Below are positions 14,294 to 22,521 of a DNA stretch of 64,000 bases, piece after piece (position 1 is the stretch's first letter; each line of letters starts with the position of its first letter). The DNA comes from Oscillospiraceae bacterium (lineage in GTDB: Bacteria; Bacillota; Clostridia; Oscillospirales; Oscillospiraceae). The DNA lies in the NCBI GenBank assembly GCA_017405865.1, contig JAFQZN010000008.1:81539-145538 (forward strand). Direction: 5' to 3'. The notes below the pieces were generated by a model. It was not told the origin of the DNA and ran no database searches. It was given only the letters and a program-made list of their open reading frames with translations. The translations under genes and the position numbers were made by a program.

Positions 14294-14511
14294 ATGCAGC
14301 TCCTCCTGTAAAGTAACTTTGCACTTTGCATTATAATGAATCCGTCGTTTCTTGTCAAGTCAAATCACCTTTCGTGTGATTCCGCTCACCAAATAAGCGA
14401 CCTCTGCCAAATTCAACAATAATTGTCATTGATAATCGTTCAAATAACGGTGAAACTACGGATGAGGTCATCAAACCGTATTGATGACTGAAACTGTAAA
14501 AGGAGATGACA

Positions 14512-14709
14512 ATGATGAAGAGTAACAGCCAGATCAACGTTCCGGAAGCACGCGATGCGATGGACAAGTTCAAGATGGAAGCTGCCAACGAGGTTGGCGT
14601 CAACCTGAAGAACGGCTATAACGGCGACCTGACCTCCCGCGAGGCCGGTTCCGTCGGCGGCCAGATGGTCAAGAAGATGATCGAGTCCTACGAGCGCAAC
14701 ATGAAGTAA
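14512..14709 (+). CDS. Alpha/beta-type small acid-soluble spore protein
   Basis: VPEA..AMDKFKMEAANEVGV..NGDLTSREAGSVGGQMVKKMI; start chosen 7 nt after AAAGGAG. Confidence 0.97.
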   Translation: MMKSNSQINVPEARDAMDKFKMEAANEVGVNLKNGYNGDLTSREAGSVGGQMVKKMIESYERNMK

Positions 14710-14715
14710 TCAGCA

Positions 14716-14750
14716 ATAAGCCGGTGACTTTCGATGAGTCACCGGCTTAT
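14716..14750. terminator. Hairpin terminator shared by the SASP gene and the aryl-acid operon
   Basis: 14-bp perfect stem ATAAGCCGGTGACT/AGTCACCGGCTTAT. Confidence 0.8.
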
Positions 14751-14758
14751 CCTATCCG

Positions 14759-15187
14759 TCAGTGCAGCCCGATTTCCTCCGGGTCGATGATGCGGATGCC
14801 GTTATTTTCCAGCAGGGCGATCAGCCGCGCTTCATCGGAGACACGGAAGACCATATAAGCGTCTTCCCTGCCGCGGTTAAAGAGCGAGTACATATACTCA
14901 ATGTCGATCTGCGCGCCTGCCATCAGCTCCAGAACGTTCGAAAGCGCGCCGGGAACGTCAGGAACGGCAACAATCACGACGTCGTTAATCTTGATAATGC
15001 AATGCTGGTCGGTCAGCGCTTCTTTTGCCGTGCTGATGTCGTCAACGAGCATGCGGAGTATGCCGAAATCCGTCGTATCGGCAATGGAGAGCGCGCGGAT
15101 ATCCACGCCCGCCTCGTGCAGAGCGCGGGTGATCGCGGCGATTTTGCCGGCCTTATTCTGCAGAAAAACGGAAAGCTGCGGTACCAT
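14759..15187 (-). CDS. Tandem ACT-domain protein (COG4747-like)
   Basis: QLSVFLQNKAGKIAAITRAL..DIRALSIADTTDFGILRM; second ACT repeat VPDVPGALSNVL. Confidence 0.9.
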   Translation of the reverse strand: MVPQLSVFLQNKAGKIAAITRALHEAGVDIRALSIADTTDFGILRMLVDDISTAKEALTDQHCIIKINDVVIVAVPDVPGALSNVLELMAGAQIDIEYMYSLFNRGREDAYMVFRVSDEARLIALLENNGIRIIDPEEIGLH

Positions 15188-15200
15188 ATTGCTTACCTCC

Positions 15201-16508
15201 TTAATCCAAGAGCTTGCGCTTATCTATGACGCGAACGGCCTTTCCTTCGGAGCGCGGGATGGTATTCGGCTCCACCAGAGAAACCTTTGCGCCGATGCCG
15301 AGCAGGGTGCGAAGCGCAGCCTCCAGCTCCTTCGCGCGCTGGGCCAGACCGCGAACAGTGTCGGAGAAGATCTCGTTACTGATCTCAACCTGCACCTCAA
15401 TGCTGTCCGTATGATTCGCGCGGTCGACGACGATCTGATAGTTTGCGGTGTAGCCCTGATCAAGCAGGACCGTTTCGATCTGTGACGGGAAGACATTGAC
15501 GCCGCGAATGATGAGCATATCGTCCGTTCTGCCGCGCGGCTTTGTCATTTTGACCAGCGTACGGCCGCAGGAGCATTTTGCTCTCGTGATCACGCCGATG
15601 TCGCGGGTGCGGTAGCGCAGGATCGGGAACGCCTCCTTCGTGATGCAGGTGAATACCAGCTCGCCTTGTGTCCCCTCCGGCAGCACCTCGCCGGTATCAG
15701 GGTCAATGACCTCGACGATGAAGTGATCCTCGTTGATATGCATTCCGGTCTGCTCGCAGCATTCAAACGCGACGCCGGGGCCCATCACCTCGGTCAGTCC
15801 GTAGATGTCATAGGCCTTCAAGCCGAGCTTCTCTTCGATCTGACGGCGCATTTCATTCGTCCACGGCTCTGCGCCGAAGATGCCTGCCTTGAGCGAAATG
15901 TCGTCCTTTGTCATGCCGCTTGCCTCCAGTACCTCCGCAAGATGCAGCGCGTAGGAAGGCGTACTGCACAGGACGGTGCTGCCGAAGTCGTGCATGATGG
16001 TGATCTGCCTTTGGGTATTGCCCGTAGAGGCCGGGATCGCTGTCGCGCCGAGGCGCATCGCGCCGCCGTCCGCGCCGAGACCGCCGGTGAACAGGCCGTA
16101 GCCGTAGGAGACCTGCACGATATCCTCATCCGTGCAGCCTGCGGCAGTCAGCGCTCTGGCGCAGCAATCCGCCCAGATGTCAAGATCCTTTTTTGTGTAA
16201 CCGACGACGATCTGCTTGCCTGTCGTGCCGGACGACGCGTGGATACGGACAACGTCCTTCATCGGCACGGCGAACAGCCCGTACGGGTAAGTGTCGCGCA
16301 GGTCCTTTTTGTAGCTGAAGGGCAGCTTGTGCAGGTCGTCGATCGAATGAATATCGTCCGGCGTAACGCCTGACTCGATCATTTTATCGCGATAGAATGG
16401 GACGTTTTCATAAACGCGCCTTACCGTCGCGACCAGACGCTCGTTCTGCAGAGAAACGATCGTTTCCCTCGAAGCAGTTTCAATTTCTTTCTGATAATAT
16501 CTTTCCAT
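15201..16508 (-). CDS. paaK: Phenylacetate-CoA ligase family (aryl-acetate CoA ligase)
   Basis: [61 protein letters not shown]. Confidence 0.93.
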
Positions 16509-16510
16509 AT

Positions 16511-17083
16511 CTACGATTTCGCTCCCAAAGCAAATGCTTTACGGTTCATTTCCAGGAATTTCGGTGGGACGCTCTGTTCGATCGCCTGCTGCCATTCCTC
16601 TTCTGAAAAGTCAAAATACCGTGACAATCTGCCCATCAGGACGAGGTTGACGGCCTTGGACGAGCCTGCCTCTTTCGCAAGAGAAAGCGCGTCGAAGGCG
16701 TCGACCCTGCAGCCTGCGGTCTCCATTTTTGCAACAAGCTCCGAAGGATATTCCGCAGCGCCCGTGATGACCGGCATCGGATTGATTCTCTGGGTGTTCG
16801 TGACGATCGTGCCGTCGGGACGCAGGTACTGCGTCCAGCGAGCAGCCTCCAAAAGCTCAAACGAAACGATAATGTCGGCCTCGCCGGTATCAATGATCGG
16901 AGAATATACTTTCTCGCCGTAGCGGACATAGGTGACGACACTGCCGCCTCGCTGGCTCATGCCGTGAACCTCGGAAACCTTCACGTCATAGCCGCGCTGC
17001 AGCAGGAGCTTGCCGAGCAGCTTGCTCGCCAGCAGACTTCCCTGCCCGCCGACGCCGACGATCATAATGTTTTTCGTTTTCAT
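16511..17083 (-). CDS. iorB: Indolepyruvate/aryl-pyruvate:ferredoxin oxidoreductase beta subunit
   Basis: [35 protein letters not shown]; true start ATG 17083 (the ORF-track extension overlaps iorA). Confidence 0.95.
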
Positions 17084-17085
17084 GA

Positions 17086-18819
17086 TCAGCCCTCCCGTAA
17101 CGCGTCGAATTTGCAAAGCTGACGGCATACGCCGCAGCCGGTGCATTGGGTGCTGTCGACCTTTGCCTTGCTGTCTACGATGCTGATGGCGGGGCAGCCG
17201 ATCCTCATACACGCCTTGCAGCTCACGCACTTTTCTGCGTCCACGTGCAGCGGCGCCTTGTGCTTCACGTACTTTAAGAGCGCGCAGGGCCTTCTGGAAA
17301 TGATCACCGAGGCCTCCGGCGCAGCAAGCTCTTCCTTGATCACGCGCTCGCACTGGCCAAGATCGTACGGGTCAACGACGCTGACGCGCCGAATGCCCAG
17401 CGCGTGACACAGCGCCTCCAGATCGACCTTCGCCGCAGGATCACCCTTGAGGTTATAGCCGGTGGTCGGATTCTGCTGATGTCCGGTCATGCCGGTGATG
17501 GAGTTGTCAAGAATGATCACGGTGCTGTGCGAATCGTTATAGGCAATGTTGACAAGCCCCGTCATGCCGGAGTGCATAAAGGTCGAGTCGCCGATGACCG
17601 CAACGGTATTCGCGTCCGTTTTGCCTTCGTTTGCCTTATTAAAGCCGTGGATGCCGGAGACGGACGCACCCATGCAGATCACGCTGTCAACGGCGTTCAG
17701 CGGCGCGACGGCGCCGAGAGTATAGCAGCCGATATCGCCGATCACGTTGAGCTTCAGCTTTTTGAGCGTGTAGTACAGGCCCCGGTGCGGGCAGCCGGCG
17801 CACATGACCGGCGGTCGAGCCGGGATCGCTTCCTCCAGCGCACGACCCTCCGGCACGGGAAGACCGAGTCCTGCGGCGATCTTGTTCTGCGACAGCTCAT
17901 CAATATTGGAGAAGAGATTCTTTCCCTCGACCTGCAGACCGAGCGTCTTACAGTAGTCCTCCACGAAGCCGTCCAGCTCCTCTACGACCACAGCGCGGTC
18001 GACGGAGGACACGAAGTCCTTCAGCAGCTGATCCGGCAGCGGCCAGATCATGCCGAGCTTCAGCACGCTGACCTCCCTGCCGCAGATTTCACGCACGTAC
18101 TGATAGCAGGTGCTGGAGGTAATAATGCCGAGCTTTCGCTCCGTTCCTCTCTCATAACGATTGCAGGAAGCCGTTGCGGCGTATTCCGCCAGCGCGTTCA
18201 GCCGCGCCTCTACAATGGGATGGCGCTTCTTGGCGTAACCGGGCATCATGATGTACTTCATCGGATTCTTCTCGTAGGGCTTCTGCGGAAGCTCTACCCG
18301 CTCGGATGGCTCGACGACGCTTTGCGAATGCGCTACGCGTGTACACATCTTCAAAAGAACCGGTGTGTCAAACTGCTCGGAGATCTCGTAGGCGAGCTTG
18401 GTGAACGCAATGCCCTCGGCGGCGTCGGACGGCTCAAGCATCGGAACCTTTGCGGCCTTGGCATAGTTTCTGGAATCCTGTTCGTTCTGCGAGCTGTGCA
18501 TCCCGGCGTCGTCCGCGACGGCGATGATCATACCGGCGTTGACGCCCGTGTAGGCGATCGTAAACAGCGGATCGGCGGCCACGTTCAGACCGACGTGCTT
18601 CATGCCGCAGAAGCTGCGCTTGCCCGCCATTGACGCGCCGAACGCCGCCTCGACGGCGACCTTTTCATTCGGCGCCCACTCTGCGTAGATTTCGGGATAT
18701 TTTGCCGCGCATTCCGTGATCTCCGTACTCGGCGTACCGGGATAGCTGGACACGAAGGCGCATCCCGCTTCATATAGGCCTCTGGCAACGGCTTCGTTGC
18801 CGAGCATCAGTTGTTTCAT
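17086..18819 (-). CDS. iorA: Indolepyruvate/aryl-pyruvate:ferredoxin oxidoreductase alpha subunit
   Basis: LGNEAVARG, YPGTPSTEI, NEKVA, MKHVGLNVAAD, SSQNEQDSR, TPP motif IGDSTFMHSG..LDN, two C-terminal [4Fe-4S] motifs. Confidence 0.96.
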   Translation of the reverse strand: MKQLMLGNEAVARGLYEAGCAFVSSYPGTPSTEITECAAKYPEIYAEWAPNEKVAVEAAFGASMAGKRSFCGMKHVGLNVAADPLFTIAYTGVNAGMIIAVADDAGMHSSQNEQDSRNYAKAAKVPMLEPSDAAEGIAFTKLAYEISEQFDTPVLLKMCTRVAHSQSVVEPSERVELPQKPYEKNPMKYIMMPGYAKKRHPIVEARLNALAEYAATASCNRYERGTERKLGIITSSTCYQYVREICGREVSVLKLGMIWPLPDQLLKDFVSSVDRAVVVEELDGFVEDYCKTLGLQVEGKNLFSNIDELSQNKIAAGLGLPVPEGRALEEAIPARPPVMCAGCPHRGLYYTLKKLKLNVIGDIGCYTLGAVAPLNAVDSVICMGASVSGIHGFNKANEGKTDANTVAVIGDSTFMHSGMTGLVNIAYNDSHSTVIILDNSITGMTGHQQNPTTGYNLKGDPAAKVDLEALCHALGIRRVSVVDPYDLGQCERVIKEELAAPEASVIISRRPCALLKYVKHKAPLHVDAEKCVSCKACMRIGCPAISIVDSKAKVDSTQCTGCGVCRQLCKFDALREG

Positions 18820-18836
18820 GCTGACGCCTCCTGATT

Positions 18837-20474
18837 TCAGTTTGTGATCTGTGCCTCGACCAGACGGCCGTGGCAGTATTTCTCGCGCAGGACGGGCTTT
18901 TCGATCTTGCCGGTCGGATTGCGCGGGACCTTTTCAAAAATGATTTTACGCGGGCGCTTATAGCGCGGCATACCGAGGCAGAATTCGTTGATCTCTTCCT
19001 CTGTGCAGGTCGCGCCGTCCTTAATCTCGATGATTGCGGCGGCAATCTCTCCGAGCCGAGGATCGGGCAGGCCGATCACGGCGACGTCCTTGATCTTCTC
19101 GTGTGCGCGCATGAAATCTTCAATCTGCACGGGATAGAGGTTTTCGCCGCCGGTGATGATAACGTCCTTCTTGCGGTCGACCAGATAGATAAAACCGTCC
19201 TCGTCGTATTTCGCCATATCGCCGGTATAGAGCCAGCCGTTTTTGAGAACCTCGTTCGTCGCTTCTTCGTTCTTATAATAGCAGAGCATGACGCCGGGAC
19301 CATGGACGATCAGCTCGCCGACCTCGTCGCCGGAGACGGGAGTTCCCTGCTCGTTGACGATCTTCGCTTCCCAGCCAAAGCCGGGCTTACCGATCGCGCC
19401 GACCTTGTCGATGTTTTCCACACCGAGGTGAACGCAGCCAGGGCCGATGGATTCAGACAGCCCGTAGTTGGTATCATACTGATGATGCGGGAAGATCGCC
19501 TTCCAGCGCTTGATCAGACTGGGCGGAACGGGCTGCGCGCCGATGTGCATCAGGCGCCACTGATCCAGCGCATAGTGGGAAATATCCAGCCTGCCGGAGT
19601 CGATCGCGTCCAGAATATCCTGCGCCCACGGGACGAGCAGCCAGACGATGGTGCATTTTTCCTCCGAGACGGCGCGCAGGATCCACTCGGGCTTCACGCC
19701 GCGCAGCAGAACGGCGCGGCTGCCGGAGAGCAGGCTGCCGAACCAGTGCATTTTTGCGCCGGTATGATAAAGGGGCGGAATGCAGAGGAAAACATCGTCG
19801 CGCTTCTGTCCGTGGTGATTCTGCTCCGTGCGACAGGAGCTGACGAGCGCACGGTGGTTATGCAGGATCGCCTTGGGGAAGCCGGTCGTGCCGGAGGAAA
19901 AATAGATCGCCGCATAGTCCTCCTCGGTCAGTTCGACCGGAGGGGCAGAATGAGAGCAGTAATTGACAAGCTCAAGGTAGGACTCTGCAAAGGGCGGCAC
20001 GTCCCTGCCGACGAAGAACATGAATTTCACGCGCGCCATGCGCTTGACGATCGGCTTGATACGGTCGGTAAACTCCGGACCGAAGACAAGCACCTCGACG
20101 TCGGCAAGATCGACGCAGTATTCGATCTCGTCGCTCGAATAGCGAAAGTTCATCGGCACAGCGAGCGCGCCGGACTTCAGAATGCCGAAATAGATCGGCA
20201 GCCACTCGAGACAGTTCATCAGCAGGATGCCGACCTTTTGACCCTTTTTGATGCCGCGGCTCAAAAGCAGGTTGGCAAAGCGGTTCGCCCTTTGGTCGAA
20301 CTCTTCCCACGTCATCTCTCTGCGGTAGGGCTGATCTGTGCTCGTATTCTCGATCAGTCGGAACTCACGCCACGTTTTCGCACGGTCGCGCTCCTCCGAG
20401 GGGTTGATCTCGACCAAAGCGACCTCTGCGCCGTAAAAACGCGCATTTCTTTCCAAAAAATCGGTTATTACCAT
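18837..20474 (-). CDS. AMP-forming acyl/aryl-CoA ligase (ANL superfamily), substrate unknown
   Basis: YFSSGTTGFPK, YGLSE, LYTGD, DRKKDVIITGGENLYP, PRNPTGKI; RBS AAAGGAG. Confidence 0.92.
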   Translation of the reverse strand: MVITDFLERNARFYGAEVALVEINPSEERDRAKTWREFRLIENTSTDQPYRREMTWEEFDQRANRFANLLLSRGIKKGQKVGILLMNCLEWLPIYFGILKSGALAVPMNFRYSSDEIEYCVDLADVEVLVFGPEFTDRIKPIVKRMARVKFMFFVGRDVPPFAESYLELVNYCSHSAPPVELTEEDYAAIYFSSGTTGFPKAILHNHRALVSSCRTEQNHHGQKRDDVFLCIPPLYHTGAKMHWFGSLLSGSRAVLLRGVKPEWILRAVSEEKCTIVWLLVPWAQDILDAIDSGRLDISHYALDQWRLMHIGAQPVPPSLIKRWKAIFPHHQYDTNYGLSESIGPGCVHLGVENIDKVGAIGKPGFGWEAKIVNEQGTPVSGDEVGELIVHGPGVMLCYYKNEEATNEVLKNGWLYTGDMAKYDEDGFIYLVDRKKDVIITGGENLYPVQIEDFMRAHEKIKDVAVIGLPDPRLGEIAAAIIEIKDGATCTEEEINEFCLGMPRYKRPRKIIFEKVPRNPTGKIEKPVLREKYCHGRLVEAQITN

Positions 20475-20490
20475 AATCTGTCTCCTTTGC

Positions 20491-20730
20491 AATAAAAAAT
20501 CGTCCGCTGCTTTCGCAGAGGACGAGAATTTCCCGTGGTACCACCTCTATTGGGTCTCAACGGATCAAACGATCCAGCGCTGTAACGGGCGCAGCCGTTC
20601 CTGCCTACTGAAGCGTTCGGCAGAACCGCTCGGAAAGGTATTCTGTCCGCGCGCTGCCGCTGCCTTTCACCGACTGGCAGCTCTCTGTGGGTGCGTTCGC
20701 GGACGTACTTGTTTTCGTCGTCGCGTTTTC
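20491..20730 (-). ncRNA. T-box riboswitch, Tyr specifier (UAC), transcription-attenuation type
   Basis: Minus strand shows Stem I with ACAAGUA, AGAGAGCUG, CGGUGAAA and GAA-UAC; Stem II CAGUAG..GAACGG..CCCGUUA; T-box AAUAGAGGUGGUACCACGGG; antiterminator GAGG[UGGUACC]ACGGG/CUCGU-CCUC; terminator CGUCC-CUGC-GAAA-GCAG-GGACG plus U6. The layout matches the B. subtilis tyrS leader as I recall it. Confidence 0.95.
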
Positions 20731-20740
20731 TATCTCAAAT

Positions 20741-20769
20741 ACTTTAGCACTTTTAATCGTTAAAGTCAA
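20741..20769 (-). promoter_or_regulatory. sigmaA promoter of the T-box leader
   Basis: TTGACT-17-TAAAGT with extended -10 TG. Confidence 0.75.
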
Positions 20770-21194
20770 GTATTATTTTTCACGGGAAACGGGCTTTGCA
20801 GCACATAGCCGTTCATGCTTGCCTTTGCAACGAGTGTGCCAAGATCGTCGCGAATGATCACGTCGTATAAGGCGACTGTCCGTCCCTGTTTGACGACGTT
20901 GGCAGCGGCGATCAGCTGCGTACCCTTTGCGGCAGTCAGGTAGGTAATGTCTCCGTGCAGCGTGATCGTGTTGGTCTGCTCCGCTTGACCGTTGGCGGCG
21001 ACGGCGGAGGCAAAATCAGCGAGTGTAAAGATCGCACCGCCCATCACGGTGCCTCTTGCGTTCAAATGCTTCGGAAGAATGGGCATGGTGCAGACCGCGT
21101 GGCCGCGTTCTGCCGTTTCGATCGTGATCTCTGCCGCTTCTGTCGCAAAACGGTCGGCAGTAAAGGCGCGACGGATCTCTTCCAGTGTTCTCAT
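20766..21194 (-). CDS. PaaI-family hotdog-fold thioesterase
   Basis: HLNARGTVMGGAIFTLADFASAVAAN, ITYL, KQGRT; start MRTLEE at 21194. Confidence 0.85.
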   Translation of the reverse strand: MRTLEEIRRAFTADRFATEAAEITIETAERGHAVCTMPILPKHLNARGTVMGGAIFTLADFASAVAANGQAEQTNTITLHGDITYLTAAKGTQLIAAANVVKQGRTVALYDVIIRDDLGTLVAKASMNGYVLQSPFPVKNNT

Positions 21195-21266: not shown

Positions 21267-21295
21267 TTGCAAAAACAGCGCTGTGGTGGTAAAAT
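21267..21295 (+). promoter_or_regulatory. sigmaA promoter of the COG0523 pair
   Basis: TTGCAA-17-TAAAAT with extended -10 TG. Confidence 0.7.
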
Positions 21296-21345
21296 ATATG
21301 GGAATTTTGGAACGTCTGCAACCAGACGTGAAAGGAAGCGTTTCT

Positions 21346-22521
21346 ATGACAACCATCGACATTTATTCCGGCTTTCTCGGCGCAGGCAAAACGACCCTCA
21401 TCAAAAAGATGATCAAGGAAGCCTATTCCGGGGAAAAGATCGTCCTGATCGAAAACGAATTCGGCGAGATCGGCATCGACGGCGGCTTTATGCAGGACGC
21501 CGGCATTCAGGTCAACGAAATGAACTCCGGCTGCATCTGCTGCTCTCTCGTCGGCGATTTCAGCAAGGCGCTGCAGCAGGTCATCAGCGAGTACCAGCCC
21601 GACCGCATTCTGATTGAGCCGTCCGGCGTCGGCAAATTGAGCGACGTGATCGCCGCCGTGCAGCGCTCCGTCGGCGGCGACGTGCAGCTCGGCTGCTTCG
21701 TCACCGTCGCTGACGCGACGAAGTGCAAGGTATATCTCAAGAACTTCGGCGAATTCTACAGCAATCAGATCGAGACGGCGTCCGCGATCATTCTCAGCCG
21801 CACGTCGACGATCGCCGATGATAAGCTGGACGCTGCCGTTTCCCTGCTCCGCGAACACAACAAGGAAGCCGTGATTATCACGACGCCCTGGGAGCAGTTG
21901 ACCGGCGCGCAGATTCTGGAAGCCATGCGTCACCAGAACTCTCTGACCGAGGAGCTGGCGGAGCTGATCGAGCACGAGCATCACCATCATGACGGCGAGG
22001 AATGCGACGATCCTGACTGCGCCTGCCATCATCACCACCACCACGACCATGAGGACGGCGAGGAGGAACATCACCACCATCATCACGACCATGATGATGA
22101 CGAGGAAGAGCATCACCACCATCATCACGACCATGATGATGACGAGGAAGAGCATCACCACCATCATCACGACCATGATGATGACGAGGAGGAACATCAT
22201 CACCATCATCACCCTCCTCACCATCATCATCACGGACACGACGCAGACGAAGTCTTCCAGAGCTGGGGCGTGGAGACGCATAAGAAATACAGCAAGGACG
22301 ACCTCAATGCCATTCTTTCCGCGTTGGACAGCGATGAGACCTACGGTGTCGTCCTGCGCGCAAAGGGCATTGTTCAGGCGCCGGACGGATCGTGGATCCA
22401 TTTTGACCACGTTCCCGGAGAGATTGATGTTCGCAGCGGCAGCGCTGCCGTCACCGGCCGTCTGTGCGTGATCGGCTCGAAGCTCAAAGAGGCGGAAATC
22501 GTCAAGTTGTTTGGAGTGTAA
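21346..22521 (+). CDS. COG0523/CobW-family G3E GTPase metallochaperone with long His/Asp/Glu insert
   Basis: GFLGAGKTT, ENEFGEIGIDG, GCICC, IEPSG; C-terminal LRAKG CobW_C domain. Confidence 0.93.
   Translation: MTTIDIYSGFLGAGKTTLIKKMIKEAYSGEKIVLIENEFGEIGIDGGFMQDAGIQVNEMNSGCICCSLVGDFSKALQQVISEYQPDRILIEPSGVGKLSDVIAAVQRSVGGDVQLGCFVTVADATKCKVYLKNFGEFYSNQIETASAIILSRTSTIADDKLDAAVSLLREHNKEAVIITTPWEQLTGAQILEAMRHQNSLTEELAELIEHEHHHHDGEECDDPDCACHHHHHHDHEDGEEEHHHHHHDHDDDEEEHHHHHHDHDDDEEEHHHHHHDHDDDEEEHHHHHHPPHHHHHGHDADEVFQSWGVETHKKYSKDDLNAILSALDSDETYGVVLRAKGIVQAPDGSWIHFDHVPGEIDVRSGSAAVTGRLCVIGSKLKEAEIVKLFGV
22027..22212 (+). repeat. 42-bp coding tandem repeat, about 4.4 copies (HHHHHHDHDDDEEE)
   Basis: Units start at 22027, 22069, 22111, 22153 and 22195; units 2 and 3 are identical (CATCACCACCATCATCACGACCATGATGATGACGAGGAAGAG). 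Confidence 0.95.

Follow-up and report, generated by a model that had tools for sequence, protein, structure and literature searches.

A tyrosine-specifier T-box heads an acyl-CoA ligase-IOR-PaaK-ACT operon in gut Clostridia: probable salvage of arylacetates into tyrosine and phenylalanine

We analyzed a 64,000-nucleotide stretch of the genome of an Oscillospiraceae bacterium (GenBank assembly GCA_017405865.1, contig JAFQZN010000008.1, positions 81,539 to 145,538), hereinafter the window, which contains an operon for an AMP-forming acyl-coenzyme A (CoA) ligase (ACL), the two subunits of indolepyruvate/arylpyruvate:ferredoxin oxidoreductase (IOR; subunits IorA and IorB), a second ligase that resembles the phenylacetate-CoA ligase PaaK, and a small protein with a pair of ACT domains. 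It appears virtually certain that this ACL-IorA-IorB-PaaK-ACT operon is headed by a T-box riboswitch with a tyrosine specifier codon. Homologous T-boxes precede orthologous operons in related gut and rumen bacteria and carry either a tyrosine or a phenylalanine codon. Taken as a whole, and judged from comparative sequence analysis, the system probably represents T-box-gated salvage of arylacetates into tyrosine and phenylalanine, with IOR working in reverse.

A canonical T-box leader precedes the operon

The entire window was scored with the Rfam covariance model of T-box leaders (RF00230; gathering score 93). The T-box leader is the only Rfam match in the 64 kb; the match spans 20730..20515 on the minus strand, scores 120.0 bits (E 5.2e-26) and covers model positions 1-219 of 219. 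The covariance-model check proposed together with the original prediction thus bears out the complete T-box that was claimed for this site. The promoter-like site and the elements of the leader are the following.

20741..20769, minus strand: sigma-70-type promoter-like site TTGACT-17-TAAAGT, TG-extended (sequence reading); the -35 box and the stop codon of the PaaI-like gene upstream overlap
20491..20730, minus strand: T-box leader (Rfam match 20730-20515, stretched to the end of the terminator U-tract)
20628..20724, minus strand: Stem I, with the GA/K-turn region, specifier loop, AG bulge and distal loop (Rfam alignment, sequence reading, covariation)
20722-20713, minus strand: GA/K-turn region GACGACGAAA (read from sequence)
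20709-20706, minus strand: AGUA (read from sequence)
20687-20681, minus strand: AG bulge CAGAGAG (read from sequence)
20671-20664, minus strand: distal loop GGUGAAAG (read from sequence)
20643-20637, minus strand: 3' side of the specifier loop, GAA-UAC-C (read from sequence)
20638..20640, minus strand: specifier codon UAC (Tyr), preceded by GAA at 20643-20641 and followed by C20637 and then by the 4-bp helix UUUC (Rfam alignment)
20625-20598, minus strand: Stem II, with a GAA...AGUA loop (Rfam alignment and sequence reading)
20597-20577, minus strand: Stem IIA/B pseudoknot region, with the loop GCGC matched by a downstream GCGC (Rfam alignment and sequence)
20562..20575, minus strand: single hairpin in the Stem III position, GGAUCGUUUGAUCC (sequence reading and alignment of relatives)
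20551-20533, minus strand: T-box sequence AAUAGAGGUGGUACCACGG, with UGGU at 20543-20540
20517..20548, minus strand: antiterminator helix with a 7-nucleotide bulge bearing UGGU (folding, -9.0 kcal/mol)
20491..20524, minus strand: intrinsic terminator CGUCCUCUGC-GAAA-GCAGCGGACG followed by U6 (folding, -15.7 kcal/mol)

With a score over the full model, the Stem I motifs, and a T-box sequence with a UGGN bulge and a competing terminator, the leader is a canonical transcription-attenuating T-box riboswitch and does not stand out within this well-known family. The UGGU bulge and the overlap of antiterminator and terminator had both been predicted and both were found: the 5' arm of the terminator is the 3' arm of the antiterminator, the stretch common to the two helices being CGUCCUCU. 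Such a UGGU bulge pairs with the NCCA 3' end of a tRNA in which N is A73.

Tyrosine and phenylalanine specifiers alternate among homologous T-boxes

A search of the GTDB representative genomes with IorA identified 80 related loci (designated here by L numbers) at 70-90% identity. Nearly all of these come from gut or rumen metagenome-assembled genomes (MAGs) labelled Oscillospiraceae, Acutalibacteraceae, Faecousia, Pseudoflavonifractor/Flavonifractor or Lachnospiraceae, and the gene order ACL-IorA-IorB-PaaK-ACT is kept in most of them. A hidden Markov model built from the window leader detected 24 full-length homologous T-boxes in 22 gut/rumen Oscillospirales-like loci, several of them in rumen or ruminant-gut MAGs, where they head the orthologous operons; the gene that immediately follows is ACL for 21 of them and iorA for the other 3. 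Of the 13 homologous T-boxes that were scored with Rfam, 11 were confirmed, at 99-142 bits; the upstream copies of L009 and L020 are below the gathering score and yet align over the full length.

The alignment of the 24 relatives with the window leader (alignment A1, 25 sequences) contains a nearly invariant 14-nucleotide T-box sequence, AGAGGUGGUACCACGG, and RNAalifold recovers from it Stems I, II, IIA and III along with the terminator, with compensatory changes in 31 of the 53 predicted pairs. The pairs of Stem I covary across the homologues, the IIA/B loop and its downstream segment vary jointly (GCAC/GUGC in L058; AAGC/GCUU in L016, L012 and L023), and the terminator is kept, 3 of its 10 pairs showing compensatory changes.

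In the aligned specifier column, UAC (Tyr) is present in 11 copies, including that of the window, and UUC (Phe) in 14, with nothing else among the 25 sequences; the two aromatic codons are separated by a single A/U change. The UAC specifier of the original prediction is the codon that the Rfam alignment assigns, and the survey of specifiers upstream of orthologous operons, also proposed there, returned solely these two codons. The one-base alternation at the position assigned by Rfam fixes the reading frame of the codon and ties the operon to the supply of aromatic amino acids. The 4-bp helix that follows the codon is itself supported by covariation (pairs 20-106 to 23-103 of alignment A1).

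Two loci possess two T-boxes each. In L009 (L009:1930-5946), a Tyr T-box precedes ACL and a symporter of the SSS family and a Phe T-box precedes iorAB-paaK-ACT-aminotransferase; in L020 (L020:3634-5921), a Tyr T-box precedes ACL and a Phe T-box again precedes iorAB-paaK-ACT-aminotransferase. Judging by the aligned leaders, this organization implies a duplication of the leader followed by a one-base switch of the specifier. In L078, which lacks ACL, a Phe T-box is located directly before iorA. On the protein tree of ACL, the Tyr and Phe specifier types are interleaved and the operons without a T-box are scattered among them, indicating that switching and loss have been frequent. Given this interleaving, the module most likely serves both amino acids, with different lineages monitoring one, the other or, via two T-boxes, both. 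A strict rule that would assign ACL to the Tyr branch and PaaK to the Phe branch fits L009, L020 and L078 and was rejected on the same grounds.

Beyond the scheme [PaaI]-T-box-ACL-[SSS]-IorAB-PaaK-ACT-[aminotransferase], no conserved flanking genes were detected in the related loci, the flanks being unrelated and differing by genome. Some loci are adjoined by tRNA genes (Val, Trp, Asp or Thr), which have no connection with the switch. L034 has a T-box of a different family (97.8 bits by Rfam; L034:3377-5923), with an apparent AUC (Ile) specifier by manual reading, and may represent a parallel case with another amino acid signal. The L034 T-box precedes a gene for a 755-amino acid fusion of helix-turn-helix, cupin and AMP-binding ligase domains, which lies 78 nucleotides upstream of iorAB-paaK-ACT.

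The operon combines IOR with two ATP-consuming ligases

Downstream of the leader, five minus-strand genes follow each other with intergenic gaps of exactly 17, 2, 2 and 13 nucleotides, in full agreement with the original prediction; the enzyme families named there (CoA ligase, IorAB, PaaK-like and ACT) are upheld by Pfam and NCBIfam. These genes, with the hairpin that follows them and the gene upstream of the promoter, are listed below.

18837..20474, minus strand: ACL, AMP-forming ANL-family acyl-CoA ligase, 545 amino acids (PF00501 and PF13193)
17086..18819, minus strand: IorA, indolepyruvate/arylpyruvate:ferredoxin oxidoreductase alpha subunit (TIGR03336, 698 bits, cutoff 651; Pfam POR_N, TPP_enzyme_C, Fer4)
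16511..17083, minus strand: IorB, IOR beta subunit (NF005325, 280 bits, cutoff 230; PF01558)
15201..16508, minus strand: PaaK-like phenylacetate-CoA ligase, AMP-forming (TIGR02155, 553 bits; PF14535 and PF00501)
14759..15187, minus strand: stand-alone ACT-pair protein, 142 amino acids (PF19571 ACT_8 and PF01842)
14716..14750, minus strand: 14-bp hairpin directly 3' of the ACT stop codon (read from sequence)
20766..21194, minus strand: PaaI-like hotdog thioesterase (PF03061; TIGR02286 PaaI is the best match, 65 bits, below cutoff)

The ACL gene has a ribosome-binding site, AGGAGA, at 20486-20481 and an ATG at 20474, and its product is a generic member of the ANL family, the nearest solved structures being FadD13, FadD5 and feruloyl-CoA synthetase. 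Both IOR subunits score above the cutoffs of their equivalog models, which identifies the pair as a predicted IorAB (EC 1.2.7.8) with a beta subunit of the POR gamma type; IorA carries the thiamine pyrophosphate-binding domain and two [4Fe-4S] motifs. The second ligase contains the PaaK-type C-terminal domain PF14535 and has TIGR02155 as its best match by far, but the score of 553 bits is under the equivalog cutoff of 646, and we therefore refer to this protein as PaaK-like. The ACT-pair protein has weak NCBIfam matches to prephenate dehydrogenase, in the ACT region of the latter; it might be a regulatory subunit that binds an amino acid. The hairpin at 14750-14716 is the likely terminator of the operon, used also by a convergent small gene on the plus strand.

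Both ligases are AMP-forming enzymes with the PF00501 domain. Among the five operon proteins and their immediate neighbors, Pfam detected neither an enzyme resembling phosphate acyltransferase or acetate kinase (Pta/Ack) nor an ADP-forming ligase (PF13607), so that the gene complement is not that of an ATP-conserving oxidative arylpyruvate module, in which a 2-oxoacid:ferredoxin oxidoreductase is accompanied by one or the other.

In the relatives, the operon is often extended. A gene for an SSS-family Na+/solute symporter (PF00474) is inserted between ACL and iorA in 13 of the 22 T-box loci, and a gene for a 388-amino acid class I/II aminotransferase directly follows ACT in 7 of the 22. The SSS family consists of Na+-coupled uptake transporters; PutP and PanF head the NCBIfam matches of the symporter, among which are also the monocarboxylate transporters MctC and ActP, and none of these matches reaches its cutoff. 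In the fullest versions of the operon, a single T-box-controlled transcript thus carries the genes for uptake, activation, C-C bond formation and transamination.

A probable pathway of arylacetate salvage

In the mechanism that we propose, charged tRNA-Tyr would leave the terminator at 20524-20491 free to form, and transcription would halt before the first gene, as in the established mode of action of T-boxes. When tyrosine is scarce, uncharged tRNA-Tyr would pair with the leader at two sites, at UAC through its anticodon and at the UGGU bulge through its free ACCA end, thereby stabilizing the antiterminator and allowing the operon to be transcribed. ACL and the PaaK-like ligase would then spend ATP, with release of AMP and pyrophosphate, on making CoA thioesters of imported arylacetates, namely 4-hydroxyphenylacetate and phenylacetate, which are abundant end products of gut fermentation. 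Operating in reverse, IorAB would carboxylate these thioesters with reduced ferredoxin and CO2 to 4-hydroxyphenylpyruvate or phenylpyruvate, and an aminotransferase, encoded within the operon in relatives and presumably elsewhere in the genome represented by the window, would yield tyrosine or phenylalanine. The ACT-pair protein probably mediates amino acid feedback on the enzymes, and the PaaI-like thioesterase encoded upstream probably serves to recover CoA from arylacetyl-CoA that is not used productively.

IOR-type enzymes are reversible, and therefore the enzyme family alone cannot settle the direction of the pathway. The anabolic direction is favored because the switch turns the genes on in the presence of uncharged tRNA-Tyr or tRNA-Phe, because the two AMP-forming ligases consume ATP whereas the ATP-conserving partners are absent, and because the relatives add an uptake-type symporter and an aminotransferase. 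T-box regulons consist of genes for aminoacyl-tRNA synthetases, biosynthesis and uptake, and no catabolic operon is known to us to be under T-box control. Oxidative arylpyruvate pathways save ATP via a phosphate acyltransferase and a kinase, or via ADP-forming ligases (PMC13285125). The route outlined in the original prediction, from arylacetate via a CoA thioester and IOR-dependent carboxylation to an aromatic amino acid, accordingly gains comparative support from the UAC and UUC T-boxes, the split operons of L009 and L020, the symporter, the aminotransferase and the AMP-forming ligases; its restriction to tyrosine proved too narrow.

A further-reaching proposition is that a sizeable group of gut and rumen Oscillospirales relies on such salvage, from the phenylacetate and 4-hydroxyphenylacetate of other microbes, as its main, possibly only, route to phenylalanine and tyrosine, and that iorAB-paaK-ACT clusters with a catabolic annotation are anabolic cross-feeding modules. 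We put this forward tentatively and regard it as rather doubtful; under this scenario, where the two ligase segments have a Tyr and a Phe sensor of their own, the sensor would tell for which of the two amino acids each ligase works.

Alternative explanations

Several observations weigh against salvage, and those that bear on the direction of IOR or on the integrity of the switch are considered below along with the alternatives that they favor. As for the others, ACL does not reach any NCBIfam equivalog model, and its substrate is not assignable by homology. The symporter and the aminotransferase of the relatives have no match within the 64 kb (tblastn, E 1e-5) and therefore have to be encoded elsewhere in the genome, and the symporter could bring in the amino acid itself rather than an aryl acid. 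Furthermore, the cluster is not generally bound to T-box control: 32 of the 53 assessable orthologous operons have no T-box, and in 21 further loci, 20 of them within these 32, Rfam at the gathering score detected no T-box before the ligase or iorA, its only T-box hit there being the one of a different family in L034.

The principal alternative is catabolic: IorAB would oxidize arylpyruvates to arylacetyl-CoA, the PaaI-like thioesterase would free the arylacetate and the ligases would only recycle or correct intermediates, the T-box being incidental. The IOR/PPFOR family in gut bacteria is usually read as oxidative, and IOR/PPFOR with a finishing thioesterase is described as the oxidative phenylacetate route in gut bacteria and archaea (PMC10809373). 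The PaaI-like gene adjoins the operon, holds the same position in about 15 related loci and, together with IOR, might complete such a route; that most of the orthologous operons have no T-box also fits this scenario. The thioesterase gene, however, ends at the -35 box of the T-box promoter and, being upstream of that promoter, is outside T-box control unless there is read-through, whereas the relatives place a solute symporter and an aminotransferase under the same T-box. Moreover, a breakdown of tyrosine that is switched on with uncharged tRNA-Tyr would be counterproductive, the two AMP-forming ligases cost ATP and work toward the thioester, and the ATP-conserving partners of the known oxidative clusters are missing, so that we consider a catabolic role quite unlikely.

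No more probable, in our estimate, is that the leader is a T-box by sequence that regulates weakly or no longer, with the operon controlled by other factors and running in either direction. All 24 relatives have a second hairpin, after the Stem IIA/B region and before the T-box sequence, that is missing in the window. In L002, the closest relative (IorA 90% identical; L002:2500-2700), the promoter upstream of ACL, nearly identical in sequence, and the terminator are kept, but Stems I-III (about 190 nucleotides) are gone and Rfam finds no T-box: the promoter is directly joined to a remnant of the T-box sequence, GGTAGTACCACGG, and the terminator, and GGUAGUACC stands in the place of GGUGGUACC, which means either that the switch decayed recently or that the assembly of the MAG is at fault. 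The leader that precedes ACL in L079 (L079:4170-4340) has a much-shortened Stem I, GACGAAAAAAGTAGGGTCCGGATACCCTTTTC, with an intact T-box sequence and terminator; it is below the Rfam gathering score and may be a reduced T-box variant. In T-boxes generally, a purine is strongly conserved directly 3' of the specifier codon, and the window leader has C20637 instead. This base (column 102 of alignment A1) is nevertheless C in 22 of the 25 copies, with A or G solely in L078, L065 and L032, which argues that it is a trait of the family and not a lesion. The decay scenario also has to contend with a window leader in which every functional element is intact and the Rfam score extends over the whole model, with the preservation of the family through compensatory changes over 25 copies, and with a strong terminator and U-tract that, in the absence of antitermination, would silence the operon.

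A shifted specifier register, with AUA/AUU (Ile; contained in GAAUAC and GAAUUC, respectively) or ACC/UCC (Thr/Ser) making the operon answer to a non-aromatic amino acid, is extremely improbable: although no register in the window puts a purine after the codon, the Rfam alignment places UAC in the codon columns, the codon lies one nucleotide before the covarying 4-bp helix, as it does in well-studied T-boxes such as glyQS (GAA-GGC-A-helix), the +1 reading would yield two different amino acids across orthologues, and Tyr and Phe match both the aromatic enzymology and the paired T-boxes of L009 and L020. Salvage of arylacetates into tyrosine and phenylalanine thus remains our preferred interpretation of the operon.

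Genomic surroundings and the host

The window sequence occurs in gut metagenomes; a search of sequencing runs returned DNA assemblies of such metagenomes and no RNA runs. The host belongs to the spore-forming Clostridia of the gut and is a relative of Oscillospiraceae. In the contigs with exact matches, the PaaI-like thioesterase is a 142-amino acid gene. Apart from the operon and its neighbors, the window encodes housekeeping and sporulation functions, including nrdD, a thioredoxin-reductase-like gene, spoIIIA genes, nusB, xseA, ftsK, lon, clpX, tig and part of valS. Pfam scans of about 45 window proteins detected no aro, pheA or tyrA products, a negative that holds for the window and not for the rest of the genome. 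A 67-amino acid open reading frame convergent with the operon (14506-14709, plus strand) looks, by eye, like an alpha/beta-type small acid-soluble spore protein; together with the spoIIIA genes at about 29-34 kb, it indicates that the host forms spores.

Just downstream of the operon, at 14330-14358 on the minus strand, there is a perfect 12-of-12 sigma-70 consensus promoter, TTGACA-17-TATAAT, which precedes a gene for a DUF2975 membrane protein (14293-13739). On the other side, divergent from the PaaI-like gene, a gene at 21283-22521 (plus strand) encodes a CobW/ZigA-like metallochaperone GTPase with a long insert of near-perfect His/Asp/Glu repeats (HHHHHHDHDDDEEE several times over). This protein is 412 amino acids long in the window versus 391 and 377 amino acids in the exact-match contigs, and the number of repeats may differ.

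Novelty and implications

Neither the enzyme families discussed here nor the proposed chemistry, which goes back decades, is new. The apparent novelty lies in a T-box regulon that consists of acyl-CoA ligase, IOR, PaaK and ACT genes, with an alternation of Tyr and Phe specifiers and with double-sensor operons. Full-text literature searches returned no paper that links a T-box to IOR, PaaK or CoA ligase, although a mention in other T-box papers or databases is possible; a term search within the T-box survey of Wels et al. 2008 found no T-box tied to these genes. On the strength of the T-box link, a cluster that is routinely annotated as catabolic can be assigned a probable anabolic function, with its genes as candidates.

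If the proposed salvage is real, the T-box would serve as a built-in label of direction, and a very common "aromatic catabolism" cluster of gut anaerobes would have to be re-annotated as a salvage pathway. The operon would also provide a gene-level bacterial basis for the finding, made in the rumen in the 1960s, that arylacetates are carboxylated to amino acids, and would show which gut taxa use up phenylacetate and 4-hydroxyphenylacetate, precursors from which the host-relevant metabolites phenylacetylglutamine and p-cresol are made; should these bacteria indeed rely on salvage, they would be net sinks for these precursors. Specifier-driven regulation and the pairing of ligases with substrates could then be tested readily on the loci with two T-boxes and on the alternation of UAC and UUC that exists in nature.

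Comparison with known systems

The leader shares with other RF00230 members, such as that of Bacillus subtilis tyrS, which has a UAC specifier, the Stem I motifs, Stem II, the IIA/B pseudoknot, Stem III, the T-box sequence with the UGGN bulge, the mutually exclusive terminator and antiterminator, and a Tyr codon in the canonical position. Unlike typical T-boxes, it governs an ACL/IOR/PaaK/ACT operon rather than a gene for a synthetase, a classical biosynthetic enzyme or a transporter; C after the codon in most members of the family and the hairpin missing from the window copy are further differences.

The closest parallel to the proposed pathway comes from Methanococcus maripaludis, in which aryl acids feed aromatic amino acid synthesis via IOR (Porat 2004, as cited in PMC4162585). 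According to that citing account, an IorAB-type enzyme (MMP0713/0714) is proposed to act anabolically on arylacetyl-CoA derived from external aryl acids, in an archaeal system described without a T-box and shown by genetics and labelling (PMC4162585). The window operon, in contrast, is bacterial, includes two AMP-forming ligases and an ACT protein, and is under riboswitch control, its function being inferred only. Rumen anaerobes make phenylalanine from phenylacetate (Allison 1965, as cited in PMC7356843). The chemistry that we propose is the same, and so is the habitat of gut or rumen anaerobes. To our knowledge, the classical rumen work assigned neither genes nor regulation to this carboxylation, whereas the present analysis puts forward a particular operon together with its sensor.

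The aerobic paa pathway resembles the window in having a PaaK-like ligase and a PaaI-like hotdog thioesterase, but the PaaABCDE ring oxygenase and ring opening were not found among the operon genes scanned with Pfam; the PaaK-like and PaaI-like matches are both below the NCBIfam equivalog cutoffs, and the context is strictly anaerobic and ferredoxin-linked. With HpdDEFG-HpdJ-HpdK of Clostridium scatologenes (PMC13285125) and with PPFOR/IOR (PMC10809373), the operon has in common a 2-oxoacid:ferredoxin oxidoreductase that acts on arylpyruvate/arylacetyl-CoA, the steps being thermodynamically reversible. The oxidative clusters, however, gain ATP by combining the oxidoreductase with a phosphate acyltransferase and kinase or with ADP-forming ligases (PMC13285125), whereas in the window operon, the oxidoreductase is combined with two ATP-consuming AMP-forming ligases and a starvation-induced switch.

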